Of a stretch of 64,000 nt of DNA, positions 3,888 to 44,066 are shown piece by piece; positions within the stretch are counted from its first letter, which is position 1; the number at the start of each line of letters is the position of its first letter. A model generated the notes under the pieces. It was not told the origin of the DNA and searched no databases. It saw nothing but the letters and a program-made list of their open reading frames with translations. The translations under genes and the position numbers were made by a program. The DNA is from Nitrosopumilus sp. (GTDB lineage Archaea; Thermoproteota; Nitrososphaeria; Nitrososphaerales; Nitrosopumilaceae). The stretch covers positions 1,600,001 to 1,664,000 of the forward strand of contig OZ242220.1 in the NCBI GenBank assembly GCA_965206745.1, in the 5' to 3' direction.

Positions 3888-4058
3888 ATCGATTTGAGGC
3901 AAGATCCGTGTTTGCAGAACCAGTCTCATCTCATATCAACTTGACAGAAAATCCTCGATTTTAGGATTTTTTGAATTAGAAGAAGATCCGTATTTGGTGT
4001 TTTACATGCCATGAGTTGATTAATTCAAGGATTTGAATTGGAATAAGATCCGTATTTC
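3888..4058 (-). repeat. Three clustered copies of dispersed motif A
   Basis: aagatccgt cores at 3901, 3983, 4045, preceded by tttgaatt(a/g)gaa-like sequence. Confidence 0.65.
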
Positions 4059-4137
4059 TACTCATGTCTAGCCCCCGTTAATGTTACAGAACCTTATTTT
4101 CAACAACTTTAAATCTTTGAAGGTAACTTATACTAGT

Positions 4138-4458
4138 ATGAGTGATTCTGAAGGACACAAAAATAGAGCAAAGCATTTTTCAGAACAAGTAAAGGCTAAA
4201 CTTGAAAATGAATTTGGCTCCAAAGTTGATTGGGAGGGTGATTCTCCGCCAAGTCTACAGTTTACCATAAAGACTGGCAAAAGTTATGAGATGAGACTAG
4301 AATACAATCAAACCGAAGACTCGTTTGAATTATATGATAAAGATGCCAAAACTCAAAGAAATGAAACACTTGGCAAGTTCTCACCTGCAAATGTCACAGA
4401 TCCAAAAGATACAACCGCCTCAGATGTTGTAGAAGCAGTAAAGAAACATGCAATTTGA
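4138..4458 (+). CDS. Hypothetical protein
   Basis: ORF, likely start MSDSEG at 4138; no recognisable motif. Confidence 0.6.
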   Translation: MSDSEGHKNRAKHFSEQVKAKLENEFGSKVDWEGDSPPSLQFTIKTGKSYEMRLEYNQTEDSFELYDKDAKTQRNETLGKFSPANVTDPKDTTASDVVEAVKKHAI

Positions 4459-4586
4459 AGAATATTTTTTTAGATTTAAAAAATTATAGACATTATCATC
4501 CATGATCCATTTTATGAAACCGTTGCATGCTGGAATTTCCCTTCACAACATATCAAGATATTAGTCATTAGTGTCTGAAAAAAACG

Positions 4587-5438
4587 ATGCGCAGGCACTC
4601 CAAACATCCTGAATTTGTAAATTTGGAGAAGATTGTCTGGGAGGGCCTAAACAACATCGGCAGGACCATACCGCAAATAGAAAAACAAGAGGATAAAACT
4701 ATCAAAATCAGCCCTGAGCAGAAATCATCTATAAACGACCCAATCTGGCACACCAAGCCCGAGTTGGATCAGTATGTCGCAAAAGAACTGGGATTGGTAT
4801 TAAAGGACTATGGAGATAACACAAAGACAAACGCGCTTTACAATGCAGTCGTATCTGAAGTGCGCAGATTACGAAAATGCAACATCCTCATAGACTGGCA
4901 TCTGACTGAAAGCAAGAAAAGAGGAATGGGCTTGTGGAGATTGGACAAAACAAAGCTTGAAAAATTTGTACACCGGCGCGCAGATCAAGAGATGAGGGAG
5001 AGCAACTTTTATTCGAATGGCAAGACCTCGATGATCTTTGTAAGGCAAAAGCAGGTCGCCTTTAGAAAAAAGTTGCTTGGAGAATATGGCAAGTGCGCAT
5101 TATGCGGATTCAAGCTTCCAGACTACATGATTGGGGCCCACATCGTACCCTATTCAGTGATGAGAAGAGAGGATGCGGCAAATGCAATGAATCCTGCCAA
5201 CGGGCTGCTGCTGTGCAGACTCTGCGATGTCGCATTTGAAAAGGGATCCATAACACTAGAGTCGGATTTGGGAATAACAATATCTGACTATCTGGCTGAG
5301 CAGGAGAGTCCTGCTGTAAGGTCCTGGCTTGGGCCGATTCCGGCAGAACTGCGCATCAGGGCAGATGCAAAGTATCCTCCGGATCCCAGCTATCTGAAAT
5401 GGAAGAAGAGGTTGCTTGCCAGTGCATGCTTGAATTAG
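4587..5438 (+). CDS. HNH endonuclease (HNH_2 type), putative modification-dependent restriction enzyme
   Basis: RQKQVAFR..CALCG..GAHIVP..NGLLLCRLCDVAF..P..YLKW; N-terminal helical/wHTH-like region. Confidence 0.8.
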   Translation: MRRHSKHPEFVNLEKIVWEGLNNIGRTIPQIEKQEDKTIKISPEQKSSINDPIWHTKPELDQYVAKELGLVLKDYGDNTKTNALYNAVVSEVRRLRKCNILIDWHLTESKKRGMGLWRLDKTKLEKFVHRRADQEMRESNFYSNGKTSMIFVRQKQVAFRKKLLGEYGKCALCGFKLPDYMIGAHIVPYSVMRREDAANAMNPANGLLLCRLCDVAFEKGSITLESDLGITISDYLAEQESPAVRSWLGPIPAELRIRADAKYPPDPSYLKWKKRLLASACLN

Positions 5439-5529
5439 AACGGATTTTGGTGAATCTTTGGAATGTGCGTTTTTTGTAGGGTACAATAAAATAACTCTTA
5501 ATAATATATGAGCGTCTGATGAATCGTGT

Positions 5530-6531
5530 ATGACCTCGGATTTGGATGAGAAAACAAAATCCTTGAATCAAAGTGGGGCGTTTTTACAACTTCATGTGAT
5601 AAATCAGCTAGAAAAATGTGGTTGGAATGTATTATCTGAATATCCAGTGCGCATCTCTCCATTCATAGATTCACCTGAAAATGATGATACGATAAAGCAG
5701 GGCTTGGAAAATGATGCAGGTGTTGAACCAAACAGTTTTGTGAGGACAGTCAGAAATTGCATGGATAAAACAACAGTAAAAGAGACATCTATTGATGTGA
5801 TTGCAGCCAAATACGCACATAGGAGACAAATGCATACCCTATGTATCGAATCAAAGAAATTACATCCTGATTTTGTGGATTGGGTGTTTTTCAAGCAAAC
5901 GCAATCTGATGGAAAACTGCGACTTTTAGTTAAAAGTGAGTGCGAACCGGAGGTTCCACTATTTACGACGCCAAAAACCACAAAATATGAAAAAACACAT
6001 CTTGAAATATGCACCATTAAAGAATTCTCAGGTTATGAGATATGCGATTTTGGAATATCACTAAAAAATAAAAAAATAGATAATGAATATTACAAATCAG
6101 ATAAGACAAAAGTTGATGATGCAACTCGGCAGATAATGGAGGGAACGTACGGATACATTGTAGATAAAATATTGCAAAATATACAACAAGGTGAACCAGA
6201 TCTTCAGAATAATGATATAGAGTGCTTTTTTCCAATAGTTGTAACAAATGCAAATTTATTCGTATGTGATGTTGATAAGAATAAAATAGATCCACAAAAA
6301 GGGACTATAAATGAGAATCCAGAATACATGCCAGTTGATTCTCTGATTTACGAATGTCCTACACCAAGTACCATCCAATTCCCTGAACCGTTTAAAGCAA
6401 TCCTTGATTCAGATAAAAATCGTGCAATAAAAAAATGGCATGTATTAGTATTATCGCCAAAAGGTTTTGCTGAATTTCTAGATATACTTGACAAATCACA
6501 TATTTCTAAAATAACCAAGAATCCATTTTGA
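5530..6531 (+). CDS. PD-(D/E)XK nuclease-fold protein
   Basis: SGAFLQ..V...L...GW.V..EYP, SIDVIA, LCIESKK, PIVVTNA. Confidence 0.65.
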   Translation: MTSDLDEKTKSLNQSGAFLQLHVINQLEKCGWNVLSEYPVRISPFIDSPENDDTIKQGLENDAGVEPNSFVRTVRNCMDKTTVKETSIDVIAAKYAHRRQMHTLCIESKKLHPDFVDWVFFKQTQSDGKLRLLVKSECEPEVPLFTTPKTTKYEKTHLEICTIKEFSGYEICDFGISLKNKKIDNEYYKSDKTKVDDATRQIMEGTYGYIVDKILQNIQQGEPDLQNNDIECFFPIVVTNANLFVCDVDKNKIDPQKGTINENPEYMPVDSLIYECPTPSTIQFPEPFKAILDSDKNRAIKKWHVLVLSPKGFAEFLDILDKSHISKITKNPF

Positions 6532-7634: not shown

Positions 7635-9659
7635 CTAGGATGGTTGTGGGTTTGCCAATCGAATACATTCTTTGAAAATTTTTTCAAAGATTTGTAATTT
7701 TTCAGCAGACACTATTTTTTCTGCAAAACTGTATGCAATTGCCGGTTTTGATGATTTATTTTCTCGTTTAGCCTCAGAATATGCATCGGAATCAATACGT
7801 TCCATCAGATCTTCCAAATCCCCACCTTCTATGACTAAAACAGGACCATCTGGACATACATCGTCTTTAGAGATGGTTCCACTTGAATCAAAAAGGTCTT
7901 TTGCATCATAGTCAGCTATAATCAAGTATGGAATTTCAAAACTTGCCATTAACTTTTCATACTTGGCAAAACCATCCTTTCCGCCAACTTGTGTAATTAT
8001 TATATCGTTTCCAGTAATATCAGCACCCTTTGAACGAGATTCCAAGAAATTAGAGATTCCAATCAAGAGATTTTTATCAGAATCACCTTCGGTAAAAATA
8101 ACACCTTTACTAAAAAATATCTGCGTATCTAGTTGATGTCTTAGCCTATGACGATTTTCATTAAACCATGTCTCTGTTTCCCCATCTAGTTTTTTTACAA
8201 CTGTATGTTGGTCCGTCTTGCGTAAATATAGTATGTCAGATTTCTCTTCAAAAATTTCATGGCTTGTAAGTTCAGGGGAATGTGTAATTACAATAAATTG
8301 ATTGGTATTATCCGAATTTTGCAATGATCTGGTCAGTGATTTCATTAAATTTGGGTGTAGGTTGACTGATGGTTCATCCAACAAGATGACAGAGTTGCTT
8401 ACTCCATGTGCTAACGTTAGGAGGTAGATTACCTCCAATATTCCAGAACCCACTTGATTAGTTGGAAATTGTCTTTCTAACTTTTTATCAACGATCATGA
8501 TGGCAGGTATTTTGGGTTTTGGAGGATTCAAATTTCCCACAAGATCATAGTCTGGACGATGTCTAGATTGTAATAATACATCAAAATCTAAATTGTTTGT
8601 TTCAAATATATCATGAAATTCATTTTTAATTTTAGAAAATTTGATTCTGGCATTTTGTTTTGGAGAATTTTTCAGACTAAACAGAAATTGTGTCAAATTA
8701 CTCCCATCAGATTTTAACATATCATCAAATTCAATGACTTTATCAAGTGCCCGTTGATCTAGTACTTTATTAAAATCATTTCTTGTTTCCCCATCAACAT
8801 TTACTTGTTGTGTATATGGAATTTTCAAAAAATGGGCATAGTCCAAAAGAGTTAGAGATGGATTAGATCTGTTACCTGAAGAATGAATAATGCCTTTTTG
8901 GAGAATTTGCCCCAGTATCTCTAGAAAACTTATGCTGTTACTATATCCAGGATAAAGTTCTAGATAAGATAACAGTTCTGTTAGAGTTTTTTTTCCCACA
9001 TCATCATACTGTTCATGTTTTCCTGCTTCAATATTTGATAAAAAAATGCTTGTTTGAATTTTATCATCAAAAATATGATCGATATGCTCAACTGTGTTTT
9101 TTATTTCAGTTATTCCATCAAGTATATTAAAAAATTTGATTTTTTTTTCCATTGTAGTTTCAATATTTTTTGCTGGAAATTTATTTGATATTTTGAAACT
9201 AGAAAATGAATTATTAAAAAATTTCAAACCACTTTTAGGAAAATTAATTTTTATAAAAGAGTCAGATTCATATCCCTTTACTACTTTTTCCCATGACAGA
9301 TTGATTGTCATTTCATCAAATAATTCTAGTAAGATTTCTCTGTTCTCAAAATGATGATATTTTACTCGGTCAGTTACTGTGTCAGTATAAAAACCGAAAC
9401 AATCTATGATTTTTTGAGTTTCATCAGTTGAAAGTTTTAGAGATATTTCTAGAGATGGATTGAGATGGCCGATTGAAATCTTTGAATCATCTAAAGAAGA
9501 TCTGTGTAATGTATCAGTTAAAAGCTTCAAAAGTCGAAATATATTTGATTTGCCAGAATTGTTAGGTCCTACTATTACCATGTTATTTGTAAATTTAAAA
9601 TTAATCGGTTTGTAGAAAGAATACAATCCTTCGCATCTAAGATGTTGCAGACATACCAT
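7635..9659 (-). CDS. OLD-family ATP-dependent nuclease (ABC ATPase + TOPRIM)
   Basis: Walker A GPNNSGKS, signature GSG, Walker B ILLDEP, ITHS, TOPRIM TEGDSD and DYD. Confidence 0.85.
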   Translation of the reverse strand: MVCLQHLRCEGLYSFYKPINFKFTNNMVIVGPNNSGKSNIFRLLKLLTDTLHRSSLDDSKISIGHLNPSLEISLKLSTDETQKIIDCFGFYTDTVTDRVKYHHFENREILLELFDEMTINLSWEKVVKGYESDSFIKINFPKSGLKFFNNSFSSFKISNKFPAKNIETTMEKKIKFFNILDGITEIKNTVEHIDHIFDDKIQTSIFLSNIEAGKHEQYDDVGKKTLTELLSYLELYPGYSNSISFLEILGQILQKGIIHSSGNRSNPSLTLLDYAHFLKIPYTQQVNVDGETRNDFNKVLDQRALDKVIEFDDMLKSDGSNLTQFLFSLKNSPKQNARIKFSKIKNEFHDIFETNNLDFDVLLQSRHRPDYDLVGNLNPPKPKIPAIMIVDKKLERQFPTNQVGSGILEVIYLLTLAHGVSNSVILLDEPSVNLHPNLMKSLTRSLQNSDNTNQFIVITHSPELTSHEIFEEKSDILYLRKTDQHTVVKKLDGETETWFNENRHRLRHQLDTQIFFSKGVIFTEGDSDKNLLIGISNFLESRSKGADITGNDIIITQVGGKDGFAKYEKLMASFEIPYLIIADYDAKDLFDSSGTISKDDVCPDGPVLVIEGGDLEDLMERIDSDAYSEAKRENKSSKPAIAYSFAEKIVSAEKLQIFEKIFKECIRLANPQPS

Positions 9660-13246: not shown

Positions 13247-13445
13247 TAATTAAATTTTAAGATATTTGAAATTATCGCTAGCTAATTTATTGTGTTATAT
13301 GAGAACCGATGAGATGCAGATCTTATTTCGATTCAAAAAATCACTAGTCTATAGATTCAACCCAGTGGCATATTCATGAAAAATTATTTTTAAAATATGT
13401 GAGATATTGTTCAAAATCAATTAAACTTTTACATGATATACAAAA

Positions 13446-14318
13446 TTATTCACTCATATAGTCATCTAACCGTATTTTTCCTTCTTCCTTTTTCAAAATA
13501 TCATAACATGTTTTGCGTAGATTAGATATGGCAATAGTGTTTGGTTTGGTACTACTTTGTATTGTTCGTATTTGATCTGCAAATTTGGGATATGTGGATT
13601 TTAAATCTTTGATTATTTCTGGGATTAAATTTTTCAGGGAATTTTGATGTTCTTTTGATAATATTTTCCACATTTTATGAATTCGTGACAAAATAACTTC
13701 ATTCAAAAAAGATTGAGGATCTGTCAAGTCAACATGATTTAGTTTTCTATTCATGAGAACTGAAATCATGGCACGCAAAACATGGGGCGTTATCACTCTA
13801 CGATCATCTGATTCGGAAAATGGATAATATGAAATTGGTGGTTTCAAAGATTTTATAGAAATGGGACTAGCAAACTTTGCATCCAATTCTTTTTTAGAAA
13901 AGTTATTGTGTTTTTCTAATGAAATATTAGAAATGGATAATATAGGAAAACTGATTTTGCTAATAATTGATTTAAGATTTTTTGTGAAATTAAACACACA
14001 TACATCATGAGAGTAGTTATCAGAAATGCGCACATCGACCCATCTCAAAAGATCAGATGGTGTCAAATCCTCATATCGTAAAATTTGGTCATCAGATATT
14101 GTTGTTCCTCCCTTACATTCAAACACGACAGAATGAGTGGTTTTGTTAGAAGTTGCAACGACATCAGGTTTAACAGATTTTCCTGATTCTGTACGAATTG
14201 TTTGCTCAATTAGCTGCGCCTTGTAACCAAGATCTGCCAGAGGATGAATCCAGGAATCACTTTTTTTGCAAAAACCAATTGCGCAGTTTATCAAGATGGT
14301 ATGAGGTGAAGGATTCAA
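13446..14318 (-). CDS. PD-(D/E)XK nuclease-fold protein
   Basis: VKPDVVA..VVFECKGG..QILRY. Confidence 0.65.
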   Translation of the reverse strand: MNPSPHTILINCAIGFCKKSDSWIHPLADLGYKAQLIEQTIRTESGKSVKPDVVATSNKTTHSVVFECKGGTTISDDQILRYEDLTPSDLLRWVDVRISDNYSHDVCVFNFTKNLKSIISKISFPILSISNISLEKHNNFSKKELDAKFASPISIKSLKPPISYYPFSESDDRRVITPHVLRAMISVLMNRKLNHVDLTDPQSFLNEVILSRIHKMWKILSKEHQNSLKNLIPEIIKDLKSTYPKFADQIRTIQSSTKPNTIAISNLRKTCYDILKKEEGKIRLDDYMSE

Positions 14319-22522: not shown

Positions 22523-22569
22523 GACCATACTCACAAACGGGGATCTGATCACTATATTTGAGCAGAGCT
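22523..22569. repeat. Dispersed repeat B copy
   Basis: tcacaaacggggatc-t-gatcactatatttgagcagagc. Confidence 0.7.
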
Positions 22570-24625: not shown

Positions 24626-24832
24626 AATTTGTAGCAGATCAACTGTACTGTAAACTCGTGACTGAAATTATCAGTAATGATTTGCAGATGGAAATCTAAT
24701 TGGATTTGCTCCCAAGATAGTTAGTATGAGTCAGAACAAGATTCAGTATTTCAAGTCCAAGACTGCACAGGACCTAGATTTTTGATTGCAAGTCTATTCG
24801 TGGATTCTGAGATACGCTAGATGATTTTGATA

Positions 24833-26643: not shown

Positions 26644-27636
26644 TTAGTCATTTAGGTTTTCATCTAACCATGAAATAAATTTAACATATTCATCTTCGCT
26701 GTAGGACAACGGTATTTTGACTTTATACGTAAATTCTTGTTTTTTTACTTCTGAAGTGCCAGCTGGTGGAGTAATTAAAGTAGGCTTTCCAGAACGTGTA
26801 GAAGCCTTTGCATTGTATAGAGAAGGATATGGAGTGCCTGATTCTATCTTAATTTTAATTGGTTTATTATCTGAACCACGTTCCACATCCAGATATACCT
26901 TAAAAAATCCAACATCTTTTGTAACCATTCCTTTCATGTGACGATAAAATTCTGGCATGTGTTTTTTTAGTAAATCTTCTGCAGTCAGTATTCTATTTTT
27001 TTCATCAAGAAGATCAGTTTTTGTGAACATGATTGCAATTGGATTGTTAATTTTACCATCCTTTGATTCATTGATTGATTGTTTTAATGCAAGAATTTTA
27101 TTAAGTAAAATCATATTATCAAAAGATTGGTCTTTCCACAATTCGATCTTTTGACAATCAATTAAGAGGACATATACTTTCGAAAAAATCAGAAATGAGT
27201 AAGGGCTAAATTTAGTACCTTTCTGTTTTTCATAATTGATAATTCTAGTAGCTAATGAGGAGGCATCCATCTCATTAGTAAAAAAATAATCATTTAATTC
27301 TCCTGCAAAATCATTTAATCTAAGTTCAATTTCACCACCACTTGCTTTCTTTTGTTTAAGAATCATTTGAACTTGTTTGATTTCGGATTCTGCAGTCTTT
27401 TCTGGAAATTTCCCTCCTTTTAATGACATACTGTTTGCTTTCATATGTTCAATTCCATTTTTTATTCTAAAATCATATTCTGGATGATCTTCAAGAAATT
27501 TGTTAATTATTGTATCAAGTAATAAAGCTCCAACGATTGTTTTGCCAGTTTTTAGAGAACCAAGAATTGAAATAATTTTTTGGTTTTCAAATGATTTTTT
27601 AGCAATATCCAAAGAAGATATATTTTCTTTACTCAA
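26644..27636 (-). CDS. TRAFAC-class GTPase (double-GTPase/DO-GTPase-like)
   Basis: G1 GSLKTGKT, G2 PEKT, G3 DFAGE, G4 TKTD. Confidence 0.8.
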   Translation of the reverse strand: MSKENISSLDIAKKSFENQKIISILGSLKTGKTIVGALLLDTIINKFLEDHPEYDFRIKNGIEHMKANSMSLKGGKFPEKTAESEIKQVQMILKQKKASGGEIELRLNDFAGELNDYFFTNEMDASSLATRIINYEKQKGTKFSPYSFLIFSKVYVLLIDCQKIELWKDQSFDNMILLNKILALKQSINESKDGKINNPIAIMFTKTDLLDEKNRILTAEDLLKKHMPEFYRHMKGMVTKDVGFFKVYLDVERGSDNKPIKIKIESGTPYPSLYNAKASTRSGKPTLITPPAGTSEVKKQEFTYKVKIPLSYSEDEYVKFISWLDENLND

Positions 27637-27674
27637 ACAATATCAATTCCATTATGTGTTTAATAAGGATTAAT

Positions 27675-28664
27675 TTATTTGCTTATCATTTCTCTGTATT
27701 TTGCTATGTCTCGAACATAGAAACTTTTGCTTTTTTTATCCTGATTATCAGTAATTGCGATACTGATACGAATCACCCCTACTCCATCATATTTTTTTCC
27801 AAATCTTGAAGGTGCAGGATTCGCTTTCTCATATTCTACAAATGCATTAGTGCCTTTTATGATGGCATCATCAATTTGTTTTATCGTAGAATATCCTAAT
27901 TCTTTCAATTGCTGAGTAATTTCTAAAATTGACGATGGTATAGATTCAGGTCGACTAGTAAATTTTTGTTTGATATATTGAGTTAACGGTTCTAATTTGC
28001 AAGGTTGACCAAGAAGATCTTCACCGATATCAATTTTTAATTTTTGCTCTTGTGAATTATAATATGTGTCAAATCTTTGATCAACAAAAAAGAATAAACT
28101 ACTAATTGCATACATTTCTCTACGGAAATTTTCATTTAATTCAACTTTTTTGTATAGAGTATCATGTGAAACATTAGCCCATGCATGCATTAATTCAGTT
28201 CGTATTTGGATTTCACATTGAGTTTTCAATATATCTGGCCAAAGAAACAGATCTGATTTTGAAACAGAATTATTTGATAATTTGAGAATATAATGATCAG
28301 ATCGATAGCCGGATTCACTTACTCTTTCAGAAAAACTATGTTGTTTTTTTTGAATTACATTGAAGTTATCTTCAATTAATTTATCAATTTCTTCCAACTC
28401 TGAATAATACAAACAAATTACACGAATTCCAATAAAATCTTCCATATTGATGAAATAATTATTATTTATTTGCTTACGTATAATTTTATTATAAAATGAT
28501 TCAAAACTTTTTATTCTTTTTCGTAAATTAAAATTTTTAATATTTGTTAAACCAATTTTAGCAGTAAGAATTTCTTCAACTTTATTCATAGCTGGTTCGA
28601 ATATTTTTTTTTGTTGATTATATTCATCATTCAGAGATTGTTCATCTGGAGCACTAAAACCCAT
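27675..28664 (-). CDS. RelA/SpoT-domain small alarmone synthetase-like nucleotidyltransferase
   Basis: RIKSFESFYNK, EDFIGIRVI, SGYRSDHY, EIQIRTELMHAWA..H..LYK all intact; extra C-terminal domain. Confidence 0.85.
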   Translation of the reverse strand: MGFSAPDEQSLNDEYNQQKKIFEPAMNKVEEILTAKIGLTNIKNFNLRKRIKSFESFYNKIIRKQINNNYFINMEDFIGIRVICLYYSELEEIDKLIEDNFNVIQKKQHSFSERVSESGYRSDHYILKLSNNSVSKSDLFLWPDILKTQCEIQIRTELMHAWANVSHDTLYKKVELNENFRREMYAISSLFFFVDQRFDTYYNSQEQKLKIDIGEDLLGQPCKLEPLTQYIKQKFTSRPESIPSSILEITQQLKELGYSTIKQIDDAIIKGTNAFVEYEKANPAPSRFGKKYDGVGVIRISIAITDNQDKKSKSFYVRDIAKYREMISK

Positions 28665-28733
28665 ATATTTTTCAATAGTGCCAATTTTTTAAATTTATCT
28701 TTTTTCGATATTACTGTGTTTATGAGAACATGA

Positions 28734-28894
28734 TATATGGATCTTATTTCAACTCAAAAAAACTCGCTCACCCTAGAATTTCTATCAAAAGGATTAACTT
28801 GTCGTGTGTTAAACACTAGATACAGATCCTCTTCTGATTCAATTACTGATTCTGGGAGATTTTGGTGATCTGATCATCATTTGTGACCAGAGCC
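28734..28894. repeat. Motif A (28734-28762) plus composite A+B (28821-28894)
   Basis: atatggatcttatttcaactcaaaaaa; tacagatcctcttctgattcaa..ggtgatc-t-gatcatcatttgtgaccagagcc. Confidence 0.7.
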
Positions 28895-28920: not shown

Positions 28921-31900
28921 TCATCGTAACAAATCTCTATAGTCATAACTTGATCGTAATAGATGATCGATGATTTTCTTGCAAATATCTCTAACGCCAT
29001 CATGATTATCTTTCAATAATGATTCTAAGAGATTTTTAATTTCTGGTTTAGGGATGTATGCACTATTTCGTTTTTCAACAAGCAATTTTAGACATTCAGC
29101 CACAAGTATAGAATATTTGGGAATATATTTTTCCAATTTTGAGAATTTGATATAAATTAAGTTGAATTTTCCTTCATAACGCTCAAGGTAATCACGATAT
29201 AATTTTATCGTAGTTTCGTCATCTAGAGGGCTGTTTGTAAACCATTCATATAATTGAGCATGTTTTGAAAATGATTCATGATTCCAAAGTTTTTTTAATT
29301 TTTCTTTATTAAATTTCTGATCATTCTTTTTACCTTTAATTACATTAGCTATTTGGAATACACAGTGTTGAATTGGTGCCTCGTAATCATTTTCCTCATC
29401 TGTTATCTCTTTGTTCTCTACTAAAAATTGTTCAAAATATGCATCGACTTTATCAAAATCATAAAAATATGCCAAAATCATGTGATCGATTGTGGAATTA
29501 TACGCAGCGTGTGCTTTGTTATCCCTTAACAAATCAGAATTAAGCATTTTTGCATACCACGTAGGTATTTTCTTAAAAATATCAGTATACAATTTGTTAT
29601 AACGCACATAACACTCCCAAAAAGCAATCTTTAATTTTTTATCGGATTCAATTTTCTCTAATATTTGATCAAATAATTCTTTATCCAAATAATAAAAACT
29701 CGGCAAATACAAACCAAATACTGCATGACGTGAAATTGTCTGTCTGATAAATTTTTTATCAAGATAATTATCCAGAATCTGCTTTATCCTTGGCTCTATG
29801 AATTTTTTGCCATCACTATGTTTGCGGTGCCATAATAAATAATTGGCAAGTATATGAAAAGATACACCATCCATACCATTAATACAGACTGTTAAAGCAT
29901 CATCCGCAAAATTTTCTCCTAGATAATTATCACTCGATGGGTTTTTTGTCCCAATCTCTACAATGCATTCTAAGATTGACAACAATCTATCCTTATGGAT
30001 AAAATCAATGTAATCTTCTTTTAATGCAGTTTCCAGCAATTGAGAAAATTTCAATATTGGATCATATGATGTTGATCTATACTTTTCATCATCATGGTTT
30101 TTGATCAGATATTTGATTAACGATAATATCCCATCCCAATTAATTTCATTTTTATCTTTAAGGGCATTTTTTATGTTAGAAAAAAATTCATAAAGCAAAT
30201 AGGGCGCTATGTCCTTTAGCTCAATTGCTCTCTTTGAGCATTCCAAGGTATTATTTTTTACATAATCTCCAAAATTCACAGCTCGTATATCATCACGTGC
30301 ATATATTCCAGAATTTAATTTCAAAGTTTTGGCAATCTCAAACACATCATCTACTGATTTATGTCTAAAATCATCAGATGGTTTAGGTGGTTCCATAACT
30401 GAGACTCTTACAGGAGGATGTAAAGATTCAGGCGTATCAATCGATCCAAGTTCTTTTTCTAATTCATCAAATATTTGTTTGTGTTTTTTATCAAGATATT
30501 TTTTAATCGATGTTAGTTGTCTTAATTTACAGGATTTTTGTAGGTATATCTCTTCTTCAGCAAATTTGATCTTTTTTGGAATTTCTTCATCAGAATATCC
30601 ATCAATGATCATCTCAAGAATTTTCTCTCTGATACAATTAGAAACATTGCCAAACATCTTTTCAATTAGATTGTAATACTCGTGATATGCATCTATATTC
30701 TTAAAATATAGTAATAATGACAGCTCTATCTGAGGTTTAAACGCATCAGGAAATACTGAAAATATATGCAATTCAATTCTTCGGTATATCAGATATTTTT
30801 TTCCATTTAGTATACTCATACAATTTTTTAAGATGGAAATGTCTTTTTTGCCAAGTTCTACAAGGCATATCCGGAGTTTGCTGACAAAGGGGGATTTTAT
30901 ATCGGTATTCCTGTTCTGTTCGTCATCTTCAATTGCAGATCTCCAATATGTGACAGACATTTGTGCATCCATTCCAAAATGATCTATATCAAGAGCCTTT
31001 TCCAACAGATCGGAGATCAATTTAATGGTTAATTTTGGATGTTTAGAGGATATGTCAGATATTAAATCAGAAAAATACTCGTTATACCAAAATTCTGTAA
31101 ACGGATAGATTGCTTGCTTAGAATTAGGTTGTTCCCAAAGATCTGAAGACGTCTCCGATGAGATGGGATTAAAAATGAGTTCAAATATCTTTGTTGCAAG
31201 ATCTGATTCATTTTCTAAAAATAATTTCTTTACAAACTGTGAATATTTTTCAGTAAACAAATGATCTTGCGTATAGCCAGATTGGATAAAATCATACCAA
31301 TTCTCATCTAGTGATTTTTGGGCAATTTTTAATGCATGAGTAATTGGCAAAGTAATTGCACATGAAAGAAAATCTTCATAGATTCTAGGGTTACGTTTCT
31401 TTTTACTTTTAAATTTACAATCTAAAATTATCTGTGTGACTAGATCTGGATATTCTTTTACACATTTAATTAAATAAGCAGATGGGGCCCAAAAATAATA
31501 AACAAGTTTGCCATCTTCAGAAATAGATCCTGAGGGATTATCAAAAAATCCAACCTTTTTTAGAAATTCTAACCACTTTTCAGATAGTTTATCAAACATA
31601 TGAATAACTGATGCATAAGGCACAGCAAGATGTTTTAATTTCTCGGCATCTTTTATGGAAGGCGAATGCGTGATAATCTTATCAATTTCATCAAAAATAT
31701 CTGTTGGGGGTTGAACTAGTTCTGCTATAATTTTCCCAACATCGTCAAGTTTTGATATTAAATCATCTTCATCATCTATTGTACCATGATGTACAATACC
31801 ATTAAGGTAGCGATATTCATTAACTAACCTATCATAACGAGAATCATTTGAAATAGATCCCTGTCCTTTTAGATCTATAACCTGTTTGAGCAAGAATATA

Positions 31901-32139
31901 CGTTCACTATGATCTATTGGTTTTCTTCGTTCACCTGAATTCGTCATATTTTTCTTTGTCAACAAATCAATCACTTCACGCAACGAATGTGCAAAATGAA
32001 CTAATCTTTCAGGATTGTCTATGTGTTTTAATGCATAAATTGCGCCTAAATATGGTTCCTGTAATCTATCATAGAATTCCGATATTGTAATACAGATTTT
32101 CTTTTGTTCGGGAGTACAATGTCTAAAATCAACCGTCAA
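28921..32139 (-). CDS. Large protein: N-terminal HEPN-like domain + long alpha-helical repeat region
   Basis: NPERLVHFAHSLRE..YRYLNGIVHH; WRSAIEDDEQN and all-helical C-terminus; no Walker A found. Confidence 0.7.
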   Translation of the reverse strand: MTVDFRHCTPEQKKICITISEFYDRLQEPYLGAIYALKHIDNPERLVHFAHSLREVIDLLTKKNMTNSGERRKPIDHSERIFLLKQVIDLKGQGSISNDSRYDRLVNEYRYLNGIVHHGTIDDEDDLISKLDDVGKIIAELVQPPTDIFDEIDKIITHSPSIKDAEKLKHLAVPYASVIHMFDKLSEKWLEFLKKVGFFDNPSGSISEDGKLVYYFWAPSAYLIKCVKEYPDLVTQIILDCKFKSKKKRNPRIYEDFLSCAITLPITHALKIAQKSLDENWYDFIQSGYTQDHLFTEKYSQFVKKLFLENESDLATKIFELIFNPISSETSSDLWEQPNSKQAIYPFTEFWYNEYFSDLISDISSKHPKLTIKLISDLLEKALDIDHFGMDAQMSVTYWRSAIEDDEQNRNTDIKSPFVSKLRICLVELGKKDISILKNCMSILNGKKYLIYRRIELHIFSVFPDAFKPQIELSLLLYFKNIDAYHEYYNLIEKMFGNVSNCIREKILEMIIDGYSDEEIPKKIKFAEEEIYLQKSCKLRQLTSIKKYLDKKHKQIFDELEKELGSIDTPESLHPPVRVSVMEPPKPSDDFRHKSVDDVFEIAKTLKLNSGIYARDDIRAVNFGDYVKNNTLECSKRAIELKDIAPYLLYEFFSNIKNALKDKNEINWDGILSLIKYLIKNHDDEKYRSTSYDPILKFSQLLETALKEDYIDFIHKDRLLSILECIVEIGTKNPSSDNYLGENFADDALTVCINGMDGVSFHILANYLLWHRKHSDGKKFIEPRIKQILDNYLDKKFIRQTISRHAVFGLYLPSFYYLDKELFDQILEKIESDKKLKIAFWECYVRYNKLYTDIFKKIPTWYAKMLNSDLLRDNKAHAAYNSTIDHMILAYFYDFDKVDAYFEQFLVENKEITDEENDYEAPIQHCVFQIANVIKGKKNDQKFNKEKLKKLWNHESFSKHAQLYEWFTNSPLDDETTIKLYRDYLERYEGKFNLIYIKFSKLEKYIPKYSILVAECLKLLVEKRNSAYIPKPEIKNLLESLLKDNHDGVRDICKKIIDHLLRSSYDYRDLLR

Positions 32140-32304: not shown

Positions 32305-32418
32305 AGGTTCTGTGTAATCTTGGGGATATAGATGTGAAATACGGATCTTATTCTGATTCAAAAAACCCCTTGGTTCTGTTCACAAATAGTGATCTGATCA
32401 CTATATTTAATCAGAGCC
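32305..32418. repeat. Most complete composite dispersed repeat (leader + motif A + 47-bp palindrome B)
   Basis: aggttctgtgtaatcttgggga..gaaatacggatcttattctgattcaaaaaacccc-tt-ggttctgttcacaaatagtgatc-t-gatcactatatttaatcagagcc; B arms pair 18/23. Confidence 0.8.
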
Positions 32419-35326: not shown

Positions 35327-35710
35327 ACGCATGACACCCTCCAGTCCCGGCAGGCACAGCCACTGCGTGGCTCTCAAATAGTATGAGAAATACAACAAAG
35401 TGTGAAGACTGGGAGGACCTGCAAGGAAGTATGCAAAAAGTACGAGGTAAAAAAGCCCGCCGGGGCAGGAAGATACGTCTCAGGGCAGGGCAGGTGCCAG
35501 ATCTGCGAGATATGGATCGACCACAGGGGATGCCACATCAGTAACGGCTCTCCTGCAAGCGCCGCTGACCGCGGCTGGTTCTGCAACTGCTGCAACTATA
35601 GGATAAGAAAGACGCCGCGCAACAAGGTGTACAAGGAGAAGCTGAGGAGGAGCCAGGATGAAGCCGGGGTGTGATGCGGGGTTGTGCGTCTCTTTTGGAT
35701 TTGTGATGGT
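35327..35710 (+). repeat. ~380-bp direct repeat, copy 1
   Basis: Near-identical to 41572..41951. Confidence 0.9.
35402..35674 (+). CDS. Small Cys-rich Zn-finger protein of a Thaumarchaeota-type family
   Basis: TCKEVC..GRYVSGQGRCQICEIW..CNCCNYRIRKTPRN. Confidence 0.7.
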   Translation: MKTGRTCKEVCKKYEVKKPAGAGRYVSGQGRCQICEIWIDHRGCHISNGSPASAADRGWFCNCCNYRIRKTPRNKVYKEKLRRSQDEAGV

Positions 35711-36029: not shown

Positions 36030-36185
36030 GTAAAGCTGATGGTGGGATTAACTATACCCACAAAAGAATTTACCAGTCGGTCTTCTCACCAATTGGAAAT
36101 TTTCACTCACAGATGAGGTGAGCAGCGAATATGTGCTTCACCAGCTTATCATATCTAAGTAATGTTTATAATAAATACATATTGC

Positions 36186-36332
36186 ATTATACACTGACAA
36201 AATTTAAAATGTTGAATTGTACATTTGTAAAATTAAAATGTTGAATTATACCCTTACAAAATTAAAAATATGCTGAATTATGCACTGACAAAATTAAAAA
36301 TGTTGAATTATACATTTACAAAAGTAAAAATT
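36186..36332. repeat. Five ~30-bp iteron-like direct repeats
   Basis: Consensus attatacaytkacaaaattaaaa(a)tgttga, period 29-32 bp, non-coding. Confidence 0.8.
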
Positions 36333-36474
36333 ACTATTGTGTCTCGAAATCTGTTCACGATATAAAACACAATATAAAACACAATCTAAGACAGAAGTTC
36401 CGATTGACTCTCAAAATAACAAAAAACCTGATTTTTCAGACCTTTGGATCTATTGGGAAGAAGTCTATATCAGT

Positions 36475-36547
36475 GGTTTTGATCATAATGATGATCAGAT
36501 CGTCATGTTTGATCAAAATTGGAGATTTTTTGAATCGGAACAAGATT
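36475..36547 (-). repeat. Composite B+A repeat in reverse orientation
   Basis: ggttttgatcataatgatgatc-a-gatcgtcatgtttgatcaaaatt, then ttttttgaatcggaacaagat at nearly the same spacing as the 32341 copy. Confidence 0.7.
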
Positions 36548-36884
36548 GCATTAGAAAAATAATGTGCTGATACAACATGTGAAATGAAATAGTGTTATTT
36601 GAAATTATTACATGACAATTTGCCTCCCCTTACCATAATTCCAGGAATTATCCGATCAGATTTATATCGAACCCATCTTGTGGCATTCTCCTCTGGGTTG
36701 TCCAATACTGTGAGGGATAGGCAGGGCTGAGATCAGGCCAAGTGCCTGTTCAATAAGGGATTTGTAGGTTCATGGGTATGGAGGAGCTTCCAAGATGAGA
36801 TTGGATGCTGTCTTTCTATAGAGTTCTCCAGTCTGGGAGCTGTGCAGACCAAAATAATTTTAAATTAGTTTTGCCATTTCAGAG

Positions 36885-37811
36885 GTGTTGGGATTTTTTG
36901 ATGCCATTAAAAAGAGCAGAAGGCAGGTGAGTCGGGAGAATCAGAGTCAGGGCAGGGCAGGCGAGAAGAAGATTCGTGAAAAATATGAGATGACAGGATA
37001 CAAGGTGACAAGGACCGGGAAGGGGCACGACCTCAAGGCAGAAAAAAAGGACTGGTTCACCGGGGAGAACAGGGCAAAGTACATCGAGGTCAAGACAGGA
37101 AACTCTAAACTCTCCAAGCTTCAAAAGAAAAAACAGGGACAGATCGGGGGCAAGTATGTTGTTGAACGTCTCAAACCCACGACGTTTGGACTGGTTTCAA
37201 ACAACCGTGAATCAGATTCACGCTCCAAGAAGTCAAAGTCATCTGGCTTTGGCAGTCCTGTTACTTGGGGGTCTGGCTCTACGAAGAAGAAGAAATCAGG
37301 CGGTATATTTGGATCCAGTACAGTTGATTCCATCTTTGGTTCGAGTTCAAAAAAGAAATCCAAGAGTAAGTCAGTTAGTATGTTTGGATCTAGTACAGTT
37401 GATTCCATCTTTGGTTCGAGTTCAAAAAAGAAATCCAAGAGTAAGTCAGTTAGTATGTTTGGATCTAGTACAGTTGATTCCATCTTTGGTTCGAGTTCAA
37501 AAAAGAAATCCAAGAGTAAGTCAGTTAGTATGTTTGGATCTAGTACAGTTGATTCCATCTTTGGTTCGAGTTCAAAAAAGAAATCTAAAAGTAAAAAGTC
37601 AGTCAGTATGTTTGGATCTAGTACAGTTGATTCCATCTTTGGCTCAGGTTCAAAAAAGAAGTCCAGGAAAAAGAAATCAGTTAGTATGTTTGGATCCGGT
37701 TCAGTTGATTCCATCTTTGGTTCGAGTTCAAAAAAGAAGTCCAGGAAAAAGAAATCAGTCAGTATGTTTGGATCATCAAAAAGAAACAAGAAAGATGTAG
37801 GAATCTGGTAG
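36885..37811 (+). CDS. Restriction-endonuclease-fold (DUF3883/NOV_C-like) domain + Lys/Ser-rich tandem repeat tail
   Basis: GRAGEKK..GY.V..TGKGHDL..YIEVKTG; six 25-26-aa repeats FGSSTVDSIFGSSSKKKSKSKSVSM. Confidence 0.7.
   Translation: MLGFFDAIKKSRRQVSRENQSQGRAGEKKIREKYEMTGYKVTRTGKGHDLKAEKKDWFTGENRAKYIEVKTGNSKLSKLQKKKQGQIGGKYVVERLKPTTFGLVSNNRESDSRSKKSKSSGFGSPVTWGSGSTKKKKSGGIFGSSTVDSIFGSSSKKKSKSKSVSMFGSSTVDSIFGSSSKKKSKSKSVSMFGSSTVDSIFGSSSKKKSKSKSVSMFGSSTVDSIFGSSSKKKSKSKKSVSMFGSSTVDSIFGSGSKKKSRKKKSVSMFGSGSVDSIFGSSSKKKSRKKKSVSMFGSSKRNKKDVGIW
37308..37784 (+). repeat. In-frame coding tandem repeat, 75/78-bp units, 6 full + partial
   Basis: Unit starts at 37308, 37383, 37458, 37533, 37611, 37689, 37767. 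Confidence 0.9.
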
Positions 37812-41571: not shown

Positions 41572-41951
41572 ACGCATGATACCCTGCAGTCCCGGCAGGC
41601 ACGGCCGCTGCGTGGCTCTCAAATAGTATGAAAAACACCACAAAGTGTGAAGACTGGGAGGACCTGCAAGGGAGTATGCAAAAAGTACGAGGTAAAAAAG
41701 CCCACCGGGGCAGGAAGATACGTCTCAGGGCAGGTGCCAGATCTGCGAGATATGGATCGACCACAGGGGATGCCACATCAGTGACGGCTCTCCTGCAGGT
41801 GCCGATGACCGCGGTTGGTTCTGCAACTGCTGCAACTATAGGATAAGAATGACGCCGCGCAACAGGGTGTACAAGGAGAAGCTGAGGAGGAGCCAGGATG
41901 AAGCCGGGGTGTGATGTGAGGTTATGCAGCTCTTTGTGGGTTTGTGGTAGT
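41572..41951 (+). repeat. ~380-bp direct repeat, copy 2
   Basis: Offset to copy 1 shifts from 6245 to 6240, consistent with a 5-bp deletion. Confidence 0.9.
41647..41914 (+). pseudogene. Frameshifted copy of the Zn-finger gene at 35402
   Basis: tcagggcagggcaggtg has become tcagggcaggtg (loss of one 5-nt unit). Confidence 0.8.
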
Positions 41952-42093: not shown

Positions 42094-43380
42094 ATGAGAT
42101 ATGAGAGTTTAAATGATCCACGATCTGAATTTCTTAAACAAGTTCAAAAAACATCTAATTGGTTTAAGAATGTTGAAATTTCTTTAGTGATTGTAAAAGA
42201 AGAAGGAAAGAATTTGTTAGTTGCAGGTAATGCGATCTTTGTTCACAAAAATGATGAAAACAGAAAAGAGATAACATATGACTATGACCGAGTAGTTTTA
42301 GCTAGAAGAATTTTGGAGATTGATGAATTCATCAAGTTATTTCCATCTAAACCTTCAAACACATTAGACATCAAAGATCTAGAGGCTATTTTTCTTGGAA
42401 CAGGTTTTGACCATGGCGTTTATCACATTCCCAGCAATTCTAAAGGATTTGATATGTTATTTGATTGGTCATCTAGAGTGTATCTATATGTGAGTGATCA
42501 AAGCACTTCCTATGATAGCGGATGGGATTTTCTTGTCAAACCTAACTGTCCCCCATTTCCTAATTTGAATGACGCAATAGATTCATTCTTAGATAAAGAG
42601 CATGCCCTTAGAGATCATCGTATTGATGGTCTAAAAATTATTTTGCCTGATTATCATGCACGTATCAAAGATATCGTAATATCTGATAACAGTATTTCAG
42701 TTGAAATAGAATCTAGAGAAATTAATCAAGATCAACTAATTTTTAAAATAAATGCCAAATATGGCCAAAAGCAATTTTTGTCTGAGGATATTTACATAGA
42801 TCAAAAGATCATTTACGTAAAAATCCCATTTAAACCTGAAACCATGTACTTATTTTTGATTGACAAGACTAATGGCAGTCTTTTTGATTTTGTAGAGTAT
42901 GGAAATTACACTACAGATCGTGTTAAACATATCACAATCAAAACATCCTCTGAATTAATTGAATCTTTGATTACCAAGGGAGAGAACAAAAATATTGAGT
43001 TAAAACGTAAAATAGGTTCTGAATTCTTAGAATCTGTAGGGGCTTTTGCAAATACTGAAGGTGGAAAAATTATTCTAGGCGTGGATGATCGTCAAAATAT
43101 TGTTGGGATTCATGATGATTTCTCAAAGTTGGAAAAACAAATTCGAGGTACAATTAATGGTAGAATTCAACCTCAAATAGAGGTGAATGTTGAGTTAATT
43201 GAAATTCGTCAAAGTCCTGTTGTGGTTGTTACCGTTCCTAATGGTAAGAACAAACCTTACTTGTTAGATGGAGTTGCATATATCCGAAATGACGAAGCAG
43301 ATGTGGCAATGGGTAGATCTGAATTAGATGCAATATACCATTCTAGATATTCTGTGAATAGAGACTCTGATCAAGATTAG
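42094..43380 (+). CDS. Protein with C-terminal Schlafen/AlbA_2 domain
   Basis: GENKNIELKR..VGAFANTEGGKIILGVDD..KPY..YIR. Confidence 0.8.
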   Translation: MRYESLNDPRSEFLKQVQKTSNWFKNVEISLVIVKEEGKNLLVAGNAIFVHKNDENRKEITYDYDRVVLARRILEIDEFIKLFPSKPSNTLDIKDLEAIFLGTGFDHGVYHIPSNSKGFDMLFDWSSRVYLYVSDQSTSYDSGWDFLVKPNCPPFPNLNDAIDSFLDKEHALRDHRIDGLKIILPDYHARIKDIVISDNSISVEIESREINQDQLIFKINAKYGQKQFLSEDIYIDQKIIYVKIPFKPETMYLFLIDKTNGSLFDFVEYGNYTTDRVKHITIKTSSELIESLITKGENKNIELKRKIGSEFLESVGAFANTEGGKIILGVDDRQNIVGIHDDFSKLEKQIRGTINGRIQPQIEVNVELIEIRQSPVVVVTVPNGKNKPYLLDGVAYIRNDEADVAMGRSELDAIYHSRYSVNRDSDQD

Positions 43381-43509
43381 TGATCTCGATAAAATTTTAT
43401 TATCTTTTTTAACATGTTGAATGCGATTTGATTTTATGATATTTTAGCTGACCTTTTGTATACAATTCATAAAACGTGGGTATTGTCAAATCTTCGGAGG
43501 TTAGTCGTT

Positions 43510-43540
43510 AAATATGGATCTTGTTCCGATTCAAATCCTC
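43510..43540 (+). repeat. Motif A copy
   Basis: aaatatggatcttgttccgattcaaa. Confidence 0.7.
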
Positions 43541-43701
43541 CATTTGGATCTAGATATGTCTAATCACACAATTCCAGAAATATCTCAAATTATAAAGTGA
43601 GAAATTATACGGATGCCATATTCAGGATCTGAAAAGGAGGTCAAGTAAGAAATGATGGTTGGTTTTTCCTCCTTATTTTGATCGGTTCTGTTAAATTATG
43701 A

Positions 43702-43959
43702 TTAGGGCTTGCATTTTATACAGGATTGAGCCTCGGGATAGTCTTGTTTGATGCAGGATAGTTGGGATTTTGTATATAATTTATAATCTGAATGAAGAGG
43801 AGAATCTTCTTTTTGTTCCATCATTGGAAGTTGGAAAGAACAACAACTAGTTTTATGAAATCTGTTTTTTGATGATGCTGGTCCTCTCACGACTGCCACA
43901 TAACCATCGACATTATTCTTGATAAAATATCTCAATTCTTCATGCGTTGTTTTATCCAT
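43702..43959 (-). CDS. Small Zn-binding protein (Ada-like H-x3-C...CxxCxP)
   Basis: RFHKTSC...CIKCKP. Confidence 0.55.
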   Translation of the reverse strand: MDKTTHEELRYFIKNNVDGYVAVVRGPASSKNRFHKTSCCSFQLPMMEQKEDSPLHSDYKLYTKSQLSCIKQDYPEAQSCIKCKP

Positions 43960-44009
43960 AATTATTTATCTTTTCATGATTGATTTAACCATTTTGTTGG
44001 TTGATTCTA

Positions 44010-44066
44010 TGTAGTCTTGGGGACCTGAAATACTGATCTTATTCCGGTTCAAAAAACCCCTCTGGT
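44010..44066 (+). repeat. Leader + motif A copy
   Basis: tgtagtcttggggacctgaaatactgatcttattccggttcaaaaaacccc. Confidence 0.75.

Follow-up and report, generated by a model that had tools for sequence, protein, structure and literature searches.

The window analysed here is the whole 64,000-nt stretch at positions 1,600,001-1,664,000 (forward strand) of contig OZ242220.1, from the Nitrosopumilus sp. assembly GCA_965206745.1. At its left edge lies a unit transposon, of which the window holds, in this order, an N6 DNA methylase gene, a gene for a type-I-like specificity subunit, a copy of palindrome B, a transposase gene and a 91-aa Zn-rich ORF. Palindrome B and its asymmetric companion, motif A, are repeats that a sequence-only reading of the window had singled out. 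The features of the transposon are as follows.

Contig positions 1598487-1604093 (window -1513..4093), + strand: unit transposon of 5,607 bp (TIRs, 8-bp direct repeat, ORF calls)
1..4093, + strand: right-hand 4.1 kb of the transposon, within the window
Ends at 507, + strand: N6 DNA methylase gene (ORF call)
495-1958, + strand: type-I-like specificity subunit gene (ORF call)
2012..2059, no strand: palindrome B copy between the specificity-subunit and transposase genes (nhmmer E=1.2e-13), tip GGCTCTG at 2012
2496..3629, + strand: DDE transposase, 377 aa, with N-terminal Zn-binding region (Pfam, NCBIfam)
3595-3870, + strand: 91-aa Zn-rich ORF (ORF call)
3901..4093, - strand: right TIR with three motif-A cores, tip at 4093

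Both ends of the transposon start with GGTTCTGT and contain three AAATAYGGATCT boxes each. The TIRs are imperfect (initial 26 nt identical, 80% identity across 127 nt), and an 8-bp direct repeat, TTATTTTC, is found on either flank of the element. In the right end, the distances from the tip to the motif-A cores are 37, 99 and 181 nt; these cores correspond to the copies noticed earlier near 4045, 3983 and 3901, the last of which matches only in the 13-nt core, with one mismatch. In the left end, outside the window, the corresponding distances are 37, 91 and 164 nt. The cargo genes point towards the right end and give Specificity_I/MAD5-like and MAD2-like profile matches. The transposase matches DDE_Tnp_IS240 in Pfam with 38.2 bits (cut-off 27), and also rve. 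Among the NCBIfam models, the IS6 model NF033587 is the best, aligned over positions 1-202 of 202 with 73.7 bits (cut-off 125 bits); the IS481, IS1 and IS3 models score lower, and an IS1/IS1595 Zn domain is detected in residues 92-127. A comparison to PDB sequences returned zinc-finger noise alone. This is the sole IS240-type DDE gene of the genome (tblastn and PF13610 genome search), and a Pfam search of the window revealed no second transposase or integrase.

Further units that contain motif A, palindrome B or both are dispersed over the window; coordinates at 24727-24774, 43479-43545 and 44003-44065 are approximate, with a possible error of a few bases.

13310..13345, + strand: solo motif A without the canonical GGTTCTGT tip (profile match), with the 3' end of a minus-strand gene (13446-14318) 103 nt away
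22524..22569, no strand: palindrome B with one degenerate arm (nhmmer E=1.5e-12)
24727..24774, - strand: degenerate leader and motif A, tip GGTCCTGT at 24774 (leader 24757-24770; weak profile match 24727-24753, E=0.25)
28731..28894, + strand: long-type end relic with A at 28731-28766, a second A at ~28816-28852 and half of B at 28863-28894, tip 28894 (profiles), with the 3' end of the Dsr1-like gene 27 nt away
32306..32418, + strand: best-preserved composite, 113 bp, with tip GGTTCTGT, leader, A at 32335-32370 and complete B at 32372-32418 with two tips (consensus, profile, leader)
36476..36556, - strand: composite of A and palindrome B in opposite orientation, with degenerate leader (profiles)
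43479..43545, + strand: variant leader GGTATTGTCAAATCTTCGGAGG and motif A, then another shared module (~70 nt; profile, sequence)
44003..44065, + strand: leader and motif A as a solo end with degenerate tip GATTCTATG (consensus, profile, leader), with the 3' end of hamB 82 nt away

The sequence-only reading had counted at least 11 copies of motif A. A degenerate family is indeed present at all 11 places, whereas the literal 30-mer consensus is much rarer: with up to three mismatches it has two matches (32336 and 44027; none expected from 100 shuffles), and with up to eight substitutions four, the additional two being 3967-3996 and 4029-4058 (minus strand). The literal search was dropped as too strict and replaced by a profile, which we iterated with nhmmer until convergence (E<1e-3) on the whole 1.86-Mb genome. 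The profile finds 29 copies compared to 0, 0 and 0 in three locally shuffled genomes. Eight of these copies are located in the window (3964, 4029, 13310, 28731, 32335, 36522, 43509 and 44026); weaker copies near 28818 and near 24728 have E=0.019 and E=0.25. The core AAATAYGGATCTT occurs exactly 23 times in the genome, compared to once for the reversed control. Across copies, the columns of the core GGATCTT and the A-run are best conserved, and indels of 1-3 nt occur within the motif. In a scan of ~185,000 species genomes, the full motif had no match outside the source genome. The observation that the copies avoid credible genes also holds, as 26 of 29 lie outside ORFs of at least 100 aa (crude calls) in a genome of which only 16% is non-coding. 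The proposed upstream leader was found at 24757-24770 (-), 32310-32323 (+) and 44007-44020 (+). Most dispersed copies carry a leader of a type unlike that of the resident transposon, resembling instead ISs seen only in other genomes.

Palindrome B is a 47-bp sequence in which two 23-nt TIR tips stand back to back. Its arm has 39 matches in the genome, compared to none for the reversed control, and 32 of the 34 genomic copies are intergenic. The fixed distance between motif A and the palindrome could be confirmed: measured from the first nucleotide of A, the centre of B lies 59 nt away in four composites, and sequence inspection gives ~59 nt also at 32335, 28816 and 36556. The 113-bp composite is bounded by the tip GGTTCTGT and, at its opposite end, by CAGARCC. 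Using one composite as a BLAST query, we obtained 23 matches in the genome and 11 composites of A and B, including the query; only three of 40 congeners match, each with one weak match. We found no target duplications around the units: in all five true B copies that were compared, at most three of eight flanking bases match, and neither of the two composites with both canonical tips is flanked by a duplication. The mobility of the small elements in the source genome is therefore only putative. A clean empty site was not available among the nearest sampled genomes, which are ~78-80% identical in the genes flanking the island and are not collinear. Among the public runs, two from closely related strains share 93% and 50% of the island's sequence words, and no RNA run is listed.

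Related elements in other Nitrosopumilaceae connect these units to transposon ends. The closest homologue of the transposase (54% amino acid identity) is encoded in a 2,259-bp IS of genome G219, whose perfect 57-bp TIRs consist of the leader and motif A and read tip, leader, GAAATACGGATCTTCTTC. This IS is present twice in G219, with flanking repeats that match at seven of eight bases, and an IS in G154 has a perfect 8-bp duplication, ATTTTACG. The tip recurs in the ISs of G013 and G019, with an A-like box ~26-36 nt inward. In G259, a homologue with 31% identity has 83-bp TIRs that contain CAGGATCTTCTCCAGATTCA, with 9-bp duplications at two copies; in the same genome, a 4,789-bp element flanked by a perfect 8-bp duplication, GTAATTTT, is delimited by the B arm, as is a 120-bp MITE-like relative without target duplication. 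Scanning ~185,000 species genomes for the leader yielded nine loci, all in Nitrosopumilaceae records; eight of them run on into the A box (one degenerate), and at five of the nine the tip is immediately followed inward by a transposase homologue. The leader and A end matches IS TIRs of G219, G154 and the loci from the leader scan. The IS6-like clade is present in 128 of 301 sampled genomes of the family, with element lengths of 1,855 bp (G154), 2,259 bp (G219), 3,040 bp (G019) and 5,607 bp (source genome). Clade elements contain small extra ORFs, and the element in the source genome has its two cargo genes. Every end that was examined has a GG tip and CTGT, and the B arm also has CAAA.

The leader and motif A together very probably constitute the TIR of an IS6-like IS clade of Nitrosopumilaceae, with motif A as its inner part and the dispersed copies being solo ends and MITE-like derivatives. 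The elements of this clade encode a DDE transposase to which a Zn-binding region is added at the N-terminus. The earlier suggestion of a remnant of a non-autonomous mobile element is thus borne out by the 57-bp TIRs in G219, by the triple boxes and the 8-bp duplication of the resident transposon, and by TIRs that abut transposase genes in relatives. The repeat belongs to a known kind of mobile-DNA debris and is no new regulatory site. In the proposed mechanism, the outer 8 nt, GGTTCTGT, would form the tip at which cleavage and strand transfer take place, and the AAATAYGGATCTT box, 26-37 nt further in, would be the conserved subterminal part. Judging from its position and conservation, this box is most likely a sequence-specific binding site of the transposase. 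The alternative suggestion, an asymmetric site for an accessory protein, fits only in the sense that the box would be bound by the transposase.

The genome would have kept one autonomous copy, the 5.6-kb transposon with three boxes per end and methylase/specificity-subunit cargo, next to ~29 putative non-coding descendants, which comprise solo ends, two-box 'long' ends and MITE-like composites of ~113 bp. Because leader and A as well as palindrome B are pieces of TIRs, the dispersed copies are interpreted as solo ends and MITE-like chimeras. The composite would be a leader and A end fused to palindrome B at the fixed 59-nt spacing, and palindrome B a minimal MITE in which two tips of a related element abut. 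As most copies have another leader type than the resident transposon, their cross-mobilisation by its enzyme can only be assumed. The copies are concentrated in the defence island that also houses the transposon; this could be due to local or end-targeted insertion, or to the decay of earlier cargo transposons.

The orientation of the copies is relevant to several other explanations. The inner side of all eight window copies, which represent six independent loci and the right end of the transposon, faces the 3' end of the neighbouring gene, whatever the strand. Elsewhere in the genome this is the case for only seven of 18 copies, and genome-wide 15 copies point towards 3' ends and 11 towards 5' ends. 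The sequence-only reading, which had placed many copies 3' of operons, thus describes the window but not the genome. This local pattern would be expected if the units were cassette-linked sites of recombination or transposition, where the IS6-like transposase moves a cassette plus one end in the manner of IS26 translocatable units or by one-ended transposition, similar in function to integron attC, and the island was built cassette by cassette. In addition, the copies separate defence modules (OLD/GajA-like, PDC-S33 RelA-SpoT, Dsr1-like and Hachiman), the sole intact element has defence-type cargo with genes heading for the right end, and passages in PMC7986276 and PMC8477213 describe insertion of IS6-family elements beside existing copies. 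We nevertheless consider such sites unlikely. The gene calls are crude (ORFs of at least 100 aa) and the pattern comprises just six loci; no convincing paired ends and no duplications delimit any island cassette in the window, most island copies have degenerate tips, and the window is without a second transposase or integrase. Furthermore, the same pattern would arise if cargo transposons had lost their transposase and left end. It is equally doubtful that each defence cassette was delivered as cargo of IS6-like transposons, with the single retained 3'-side end as a working handle by which the transposase might bring cassette and end next to another end, as with IS26 translocatable units; if true, this would constitute an archaeal, transposase-driven analogue of integrons for defence genes.

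Adoption of the units by the host, whether for transcription termination or for protein binding, is improbable. On its reverse strand, motif A does have an archaeal oligo-T terminator signal, TTTTTTG, by a short GGATC/GATTC hairpin, this T-run is sense-oriented 3' of the neighbouring gene in all eight window copies, and the core GGATCTT and A-run are the best-conserved columns. However, the genome-wide ratio of 15 to 11 shows no orientation bias, the family is lineage-specific with its single weak matches in three of 40 congeners, and the same columns are kept in intact IS TIRs elsewhere, which explains their conservation without a role for the host. Even less probable is a family of structured small RNAs with a GGRGR/YCYCC stem around motif A. 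Such pairs can be seen by eye (GGAGA/TCTCC, GGGG/CCCC, GGAGG/CCTCC and GGGAT/ATCCC), but in mean energy, duplexes of a copy's own arms (-5.43 kcal/mol) differ little from those of swapped arms (-5.26 kcal/mol; permutation p=0.31, 28 copies), and the RNAalifold consensus consists only of a 4-bp inner hairpin (-1.6). Rfam gave no window match at the gathering score, and none at E<=1 in four loci that carry the units. The possibility that a decayed protein gene left the motif behind, for which a short open frame (FFESEQDPYF) had been noted, is not supported by the data and highly implausible: copies differ by indels of 1-3 nt, the box is inverted at both ends of intact ISs outside ORFs, and all but three of the 29 copies avoid ORFs of at least 100 aa.

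Two further ideas were rejected. A REP/RAYT origin was discarded as PF01797 (Y1 transposase) has no match in the genome, whereas the control search was positive in six of 14 reference genomes. For a tRNA fragment or att site, the T-loop-like stretch GATTCAAATCC forms no T arm, and the window contains no tRNA genes. In addition, no metagenome relative was found for the neighbouring HNH protein.

Interpreted as ends of an IS6-like clade, the units can be compared to described systems, with Varani et al. 2021 (PMC7986276) and Harmer & Hall 2019 (PMC6807381) as reference works for the IS6/IS26 family. The transposase resembles this family in its match to DDE_Tnp_IS240 and in its best NCBIfam model, and the clade ends resemble those in the family descriptions of PMC7986276 in tips that start with GG and contain CTGT, with CAAA also in the B arm, and in 8-bp duplications. 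Some longer IS6 members, termed 'clade h' in that review's account, have a zinc-finger N-terminus. However, the clade elements are 1.9-5.6 kb long, compared to ~0.8 kb with a single transposase gene, and their TIRs, which contain between one and three subterminal boxes, span 57-130 bp, compared to 15-20 bp in the review's description (PMC7986276). The transposase also scores below the NCBIfam family cut-off, and one relative in G259 makes 9-bp duplications. Movement in the IS6/IS26 family goes through cointegrates alone, by a copy-in or a targeted conservative route. Finally, the window element carries two passenger genes, whereas for the whole IS6 family the relevant passages of PMC7986276 list just one member with a passenger gene, along with two MITEs.

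Similar to MITEs and solo IRs, the units are short, non-coding, multi-copy and intergenic, with ends that match autonomous TIRs and a lineage-specific expansion. They differ in that the copies of the source genome lack target duplications, that two end types (leader and A, and the B arm) are combined in the chimeric common composite, and that the 47-bp palindrome B, consisting just of abutted tips, is shorter than usual MITEs. Tn7 and phage Mu have several subterminal transposase-binding sites in each end. Comparably, three like-oriented boxes of 12-13 nt occur here within ~180 nt of each tip, with unequal spacing between the ends; however, the transposase is IS6-like and not TnsB or MuA, the element encodes neither an accessory ATPase nor a target selector, and its duplication measures 8 bp. 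With integron attC sites and REP/BIME elements, the units share imperfect palindromes that are located 3' of gene cassettes or dispersed intergenically. Unlike these, the units are IS ends, the cassettes occur in both orientations, and there is neither an integrase in the window nor a Y1/RAYT transposase in the genome.

In a survey of thaumarchaeal genomes, 244 ISs of 13 families were reported from 20 genomes (Krupovic et al. 2019, PMC6563490); its main text mentions IS6 four times and does not contain the word MITE. In the main-text passages of that survey we found neither the ends with their subterminal box nor the cargo transposon or the non-autonomous derivatives reported above, and the literature that we searched yielded no description of MITEs in these archaea. 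Our analysis adds to archaeal mobile DNA an IS6-like clade of ammonia-oxidising archaea with unusually long ends and a conserved subterminal box, a unit transposon with restriction-modification-type cargo, and a swarm of non-autonomous derivatives that includes a 47-bp tip-to-tip palindrome. The apparent mystery of a conserved asymmetric motif, a 'leader' and a partner palindrome is gone, as all are explained as pieces of transposon ends. That end relics are concentrated between the defence modules and without exception face the 3' end of a gene provides a modest hint on how an archaeal defence island is assembled. Simple decay does not predict the shared orientation of the eight window copies.

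The repeated asymmetric motif (motif A) reported in the sequence-only reading is real. As a literal 30-mer it was too strict, resulting in 2 matches at up to three mismatches and 4 at up to eight substitutions; but the sequences at all eleven reported places are visibly related, and five of these fall into one repeat family (D5) by repeat grouping. A profile built from seven copies and iterated over the whole genome to convergence (E<1e-3) detected 29 copies, compared to none in three locally shuffled genomes. Eight of the 29 lie inside the window, which makes up 3.4% of the genome. The copies at 28818 (E=0.019) and 24728 (E=0.25) match the profile weakly, and the copy at 3901 has kept the 13-nt core alone. 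For the core AAATAYGGATCTT, we observed 23 exact occurrences in the genome versus one for the reversed control. The copies were also said to lie outside credible genes: based on crude ORF calls, 26 of 29 are outside ORFs of at least 100 aa, where 16% of the genome is non-coding. With this count, the alternative of a pseudogene fragment fails a simple test.

Three of the reported copies are located in one end of a 5,607-bp resident transposon (C1:1598487-1604093). Its left tip, at C1:1598487 just upstream of the window, begins GGTTCTGTAACATTAACGGGGGCTAG, and its right end, an inverted repeat of the left, stops at window position 4093. The first 26 nt of the two ends are identical, with 80% identity over 127 nt, and the octamer TTATTTTC is directly repeated outside the two tips. 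Each end contains three motif-A cores, all oriented inward, and four proteins are encoded between the tips.

Features of the resident transposon
Left-end motif-A cores: 37, 91 and 164 nt from the tip
Right-end motif-A cores: 37, 99 and 181 nt from the tip (copies 4045, 3983 and 3901)
N6 methylase: 596 aa
Type-I-like specificity subunit: 487 aa
Transposase: 377 aa, matches DDE_Tnp_IS240, with an extra zinc-binding N-terminus
Cys-rich ORF: 91 aa

The transposase is the sole gene of its kind in the genome; its best NCBIfam model is the IS6 transposase, but the score is below NCBIfam's IS6 cut-off.

At the level of sequence, relatives of this element settle the assignment of motif A and its leader, the stretch just upstream, as insertion sequence (IS) ends. 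Of 301 family genomes sampled, 128 have transposase homologues, a tally that takes in seven unpublished genomes, all positive (121/294 without them), which no sequence-level claim uses. The closest homologue (54% identity, genome G219) is inside a 2,259-bp IS, of which that genome has a second copy, with perfect 57-bp terminal inverted repeats (TIRs). These read GGTTCTGTGAAGTTATCGAGGGATAACATGAAATACGGATCTTCTTCAAATTGAATT, that is, tip, leader and motif A. In ISs of G013 and G019 this tip recurs, with an A-like box 26-36 nt in, and the TIRs of a G259 homologue of 31% identity are 83 bp long and retain CAGGATCTTCTCCAGATTCA. The leader was confirmed at all three places where it had been reported. 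Most dispersed copies carry a leader type (GGTTCTGTGTAATCTTGGRGAYCTGAAATA) that is unlike that of the resident transposon. Across one genome per species, this type was detected at nine loci, each in a record labelled Nitrosopumilaceae. The box follows at eight of these loci (degenerate at one), and at five a transposase homologue, 40-55% identical where aligned, lies immediately inside the tip. Target duplications measure 8 bp in the studied genome and G154, as well as in G219 (7 of 8 bases matching), and 9 bp in G259. GG tips, an internal CTGT and 8-bp duplications make up the signature that passages of PMC7986276 give for the IS6 family.

Motif A was reported at a fixed distance from a partner, palindrome B, and this spacing holds: the centre of B lies 59 nt from where A starts, and the genome contains 11 joined A+B units. 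Palindrome B is 47 nt long and near-perfect (GGCTCTGGTCAAATAYRGTGATCAGATCACCRTTTGTGACCAGAGCC), with 34 copies, 32 of them intergenic. Its arm pattern has 39 matches in the studied genome (control: 0) and was detected in 4 of 300 family genomes elsewhere, all congeners. In G259, a 4,789-bp element is bounded by inverted copies of the arm and, outside them, by a perfect 8-bp duplication, GTAATTTT; it carries TnpB fragments, a UbiA-like protein and a methyltransferase. The arm also makes up the ends of a 120-bp MITE (miniature non-coding transposon derivative) there. As both arms of palindrome B start with a GGYTCTG tip and the arm serves as element ends in G259, palindrome B is two TIR tips placed back to back. 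The previously reported 110-bp composite is a chimeric MITE whose two ends are of different types, leader-plus-A and B-arm.

The suggestion of a non-autonomous mobile element remnant is thus borne out: the dispersed units are IS ends and miniature derivatives, intact elements with such ends have transposed and left 8-bp duplications, and the repeat family has expanded specifically in the studied lineage. The composite has 23 BLAST matches in the studied genome; of 40 congeners, three have a match, a single weak one each. Public records with the same repeat ends are all labelled Nitrosopumilaceae. The tip would be where cleavage occurs, and the transposase would specifically bind the conserved subterminal box, of which simple ISs have one copy and the cargo transposon three at each end; small units may be, or have been, mobilised in trans. 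Several points sit less well with this reading: the leader at the resident element's own ends differs from that of most copies, the transposase scores below NCBIfam's IS6 cut-off, and the elements greatly exceed textbook IS6 in size. In addition, no target duplication was found around dispersed copies in the studied genome. This may be because the copies are old (~75-90% alike) or because IS6-type cointegrate and recombination pathways scramble flanks.

The genome has 1.86 Mb and a GC content of 41%, and the window is C1:1600001-1664000; GC is ~28-36% across its initial 48 kb, a defence island that is dense in defence genes at 7635-47656.

Defence genes in the window
First 48 kb: type-I-like methylase/specificity pair
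First 48 kb: HNH protein
7635-9659: OLD/GajA-like ATPase-nuclease
Within 7635-47656: two Schlafen/AlbA_2 proteins
26644-28664: RelA-SpoT protein (PDC-S33) with a double-GTPase (DO-GTPase1) neighbour
28921-32139: Dsr1-like protein, 1,071 aa
44142-47656: Hachiman HamAB
From ~50.2 kb, after HamAB: dndBCDE (Dnd) cluster

The units are possibly host transcription terminators within the island, where 8 of 8 copies place a T-run in sense orientation after the adjacent gene; however, genome-wide orientation (15 vs 11) gives no support. A structured RNA is unlikely, with no Rfam match and a GGRGR/YCYCC stem that pairs no better within than between copies (p=0.31). REP/RAYT and tRNA-fragment readings fail simple tests. 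The orientation bias of the island copies and the cargo of the resident element point towards island cassettes that may have come as cargo of such transposons, or that may move as a cassette plus one end, yet paired ends or duplications delimiting any cassette were not found.

As transposon ends and miniature derivatives, motif A and its partners are ordinary in kind and probably new in detail for these archaea. Krupovic et al. 2019 (PMC6563490) counted IS-like transposons of 13 families in Thaumarchaeota, and the word MITE is absent from the main text. Full-text searches combining MITE with ammonia-oxidising archaea, Nitrosopumilus or Thaumarchaeota found no paper on such elements. For the whole IS6 family, the passages of its review (PMC7986276) name just two MITEs and one passenger-carrying member.

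Further repeats were observed around these units. In G259, B-arm tips bracket 2,980 bp (L118:587-3566) with an unrelated DDE_Tnp_4 transposase and a GNAT gene; no matching duplication was found around this stretch, which is probably a nested insertion. At C1:1705880-1711980, four copies of palindrome B share a left flank (TACTGATA). Each is placed 14 nt after the stop of a different gene in a tandem row of four on the minus strand, which makes B there belong to a larger gene unit that is itself repeated. On either side of the composite at C1:115487-115597 is a direct copy of a ~136 nt flank (96% identical, 242 nt start to start; C1:115361-115738, L032:1062-1439), a repeat far longer than an 8-bp target duplication.

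A 40-60-nt module (CTTCTT..AATAGATCCAAA..CTGAAAAATYAG..TTTTTT, minus strand) follows palindrome B at window 36421-36460 and recurs alone just upstream of hamA (47735-47774); this module may also be part of these ends. A ~70-nt module follows motif A at four sites (window 43545-43620; C1:1342171-1342235, 1350045-1350237 and 1732778-1732980). At two of these, conserved T-rich sequence and the beginning of paralogous genes come directly after it; the module may be an element-borne promoter. The second contig (C2, 2,066 bp) has no match to C1 and consists largely of internally repeated units (offset ~143 nt, 87-91% identity, both orientations). In the window, short direct repeats (AAAATGTTGAATTRTAC, D6) cluster at 36172-36329, a gene-free stretch adjoining an A+B unit, and two ~370-bp direct segments (D3/D4; 35327-35695 and 41572-41935) are 94% identical and 6.2 kb apart. 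Six tandem 75-78-nt repeats (37287-37774) lie inside ORF 36885-37811, whose product has a low-complexity Nucleoporin_FG profile as its sole match.
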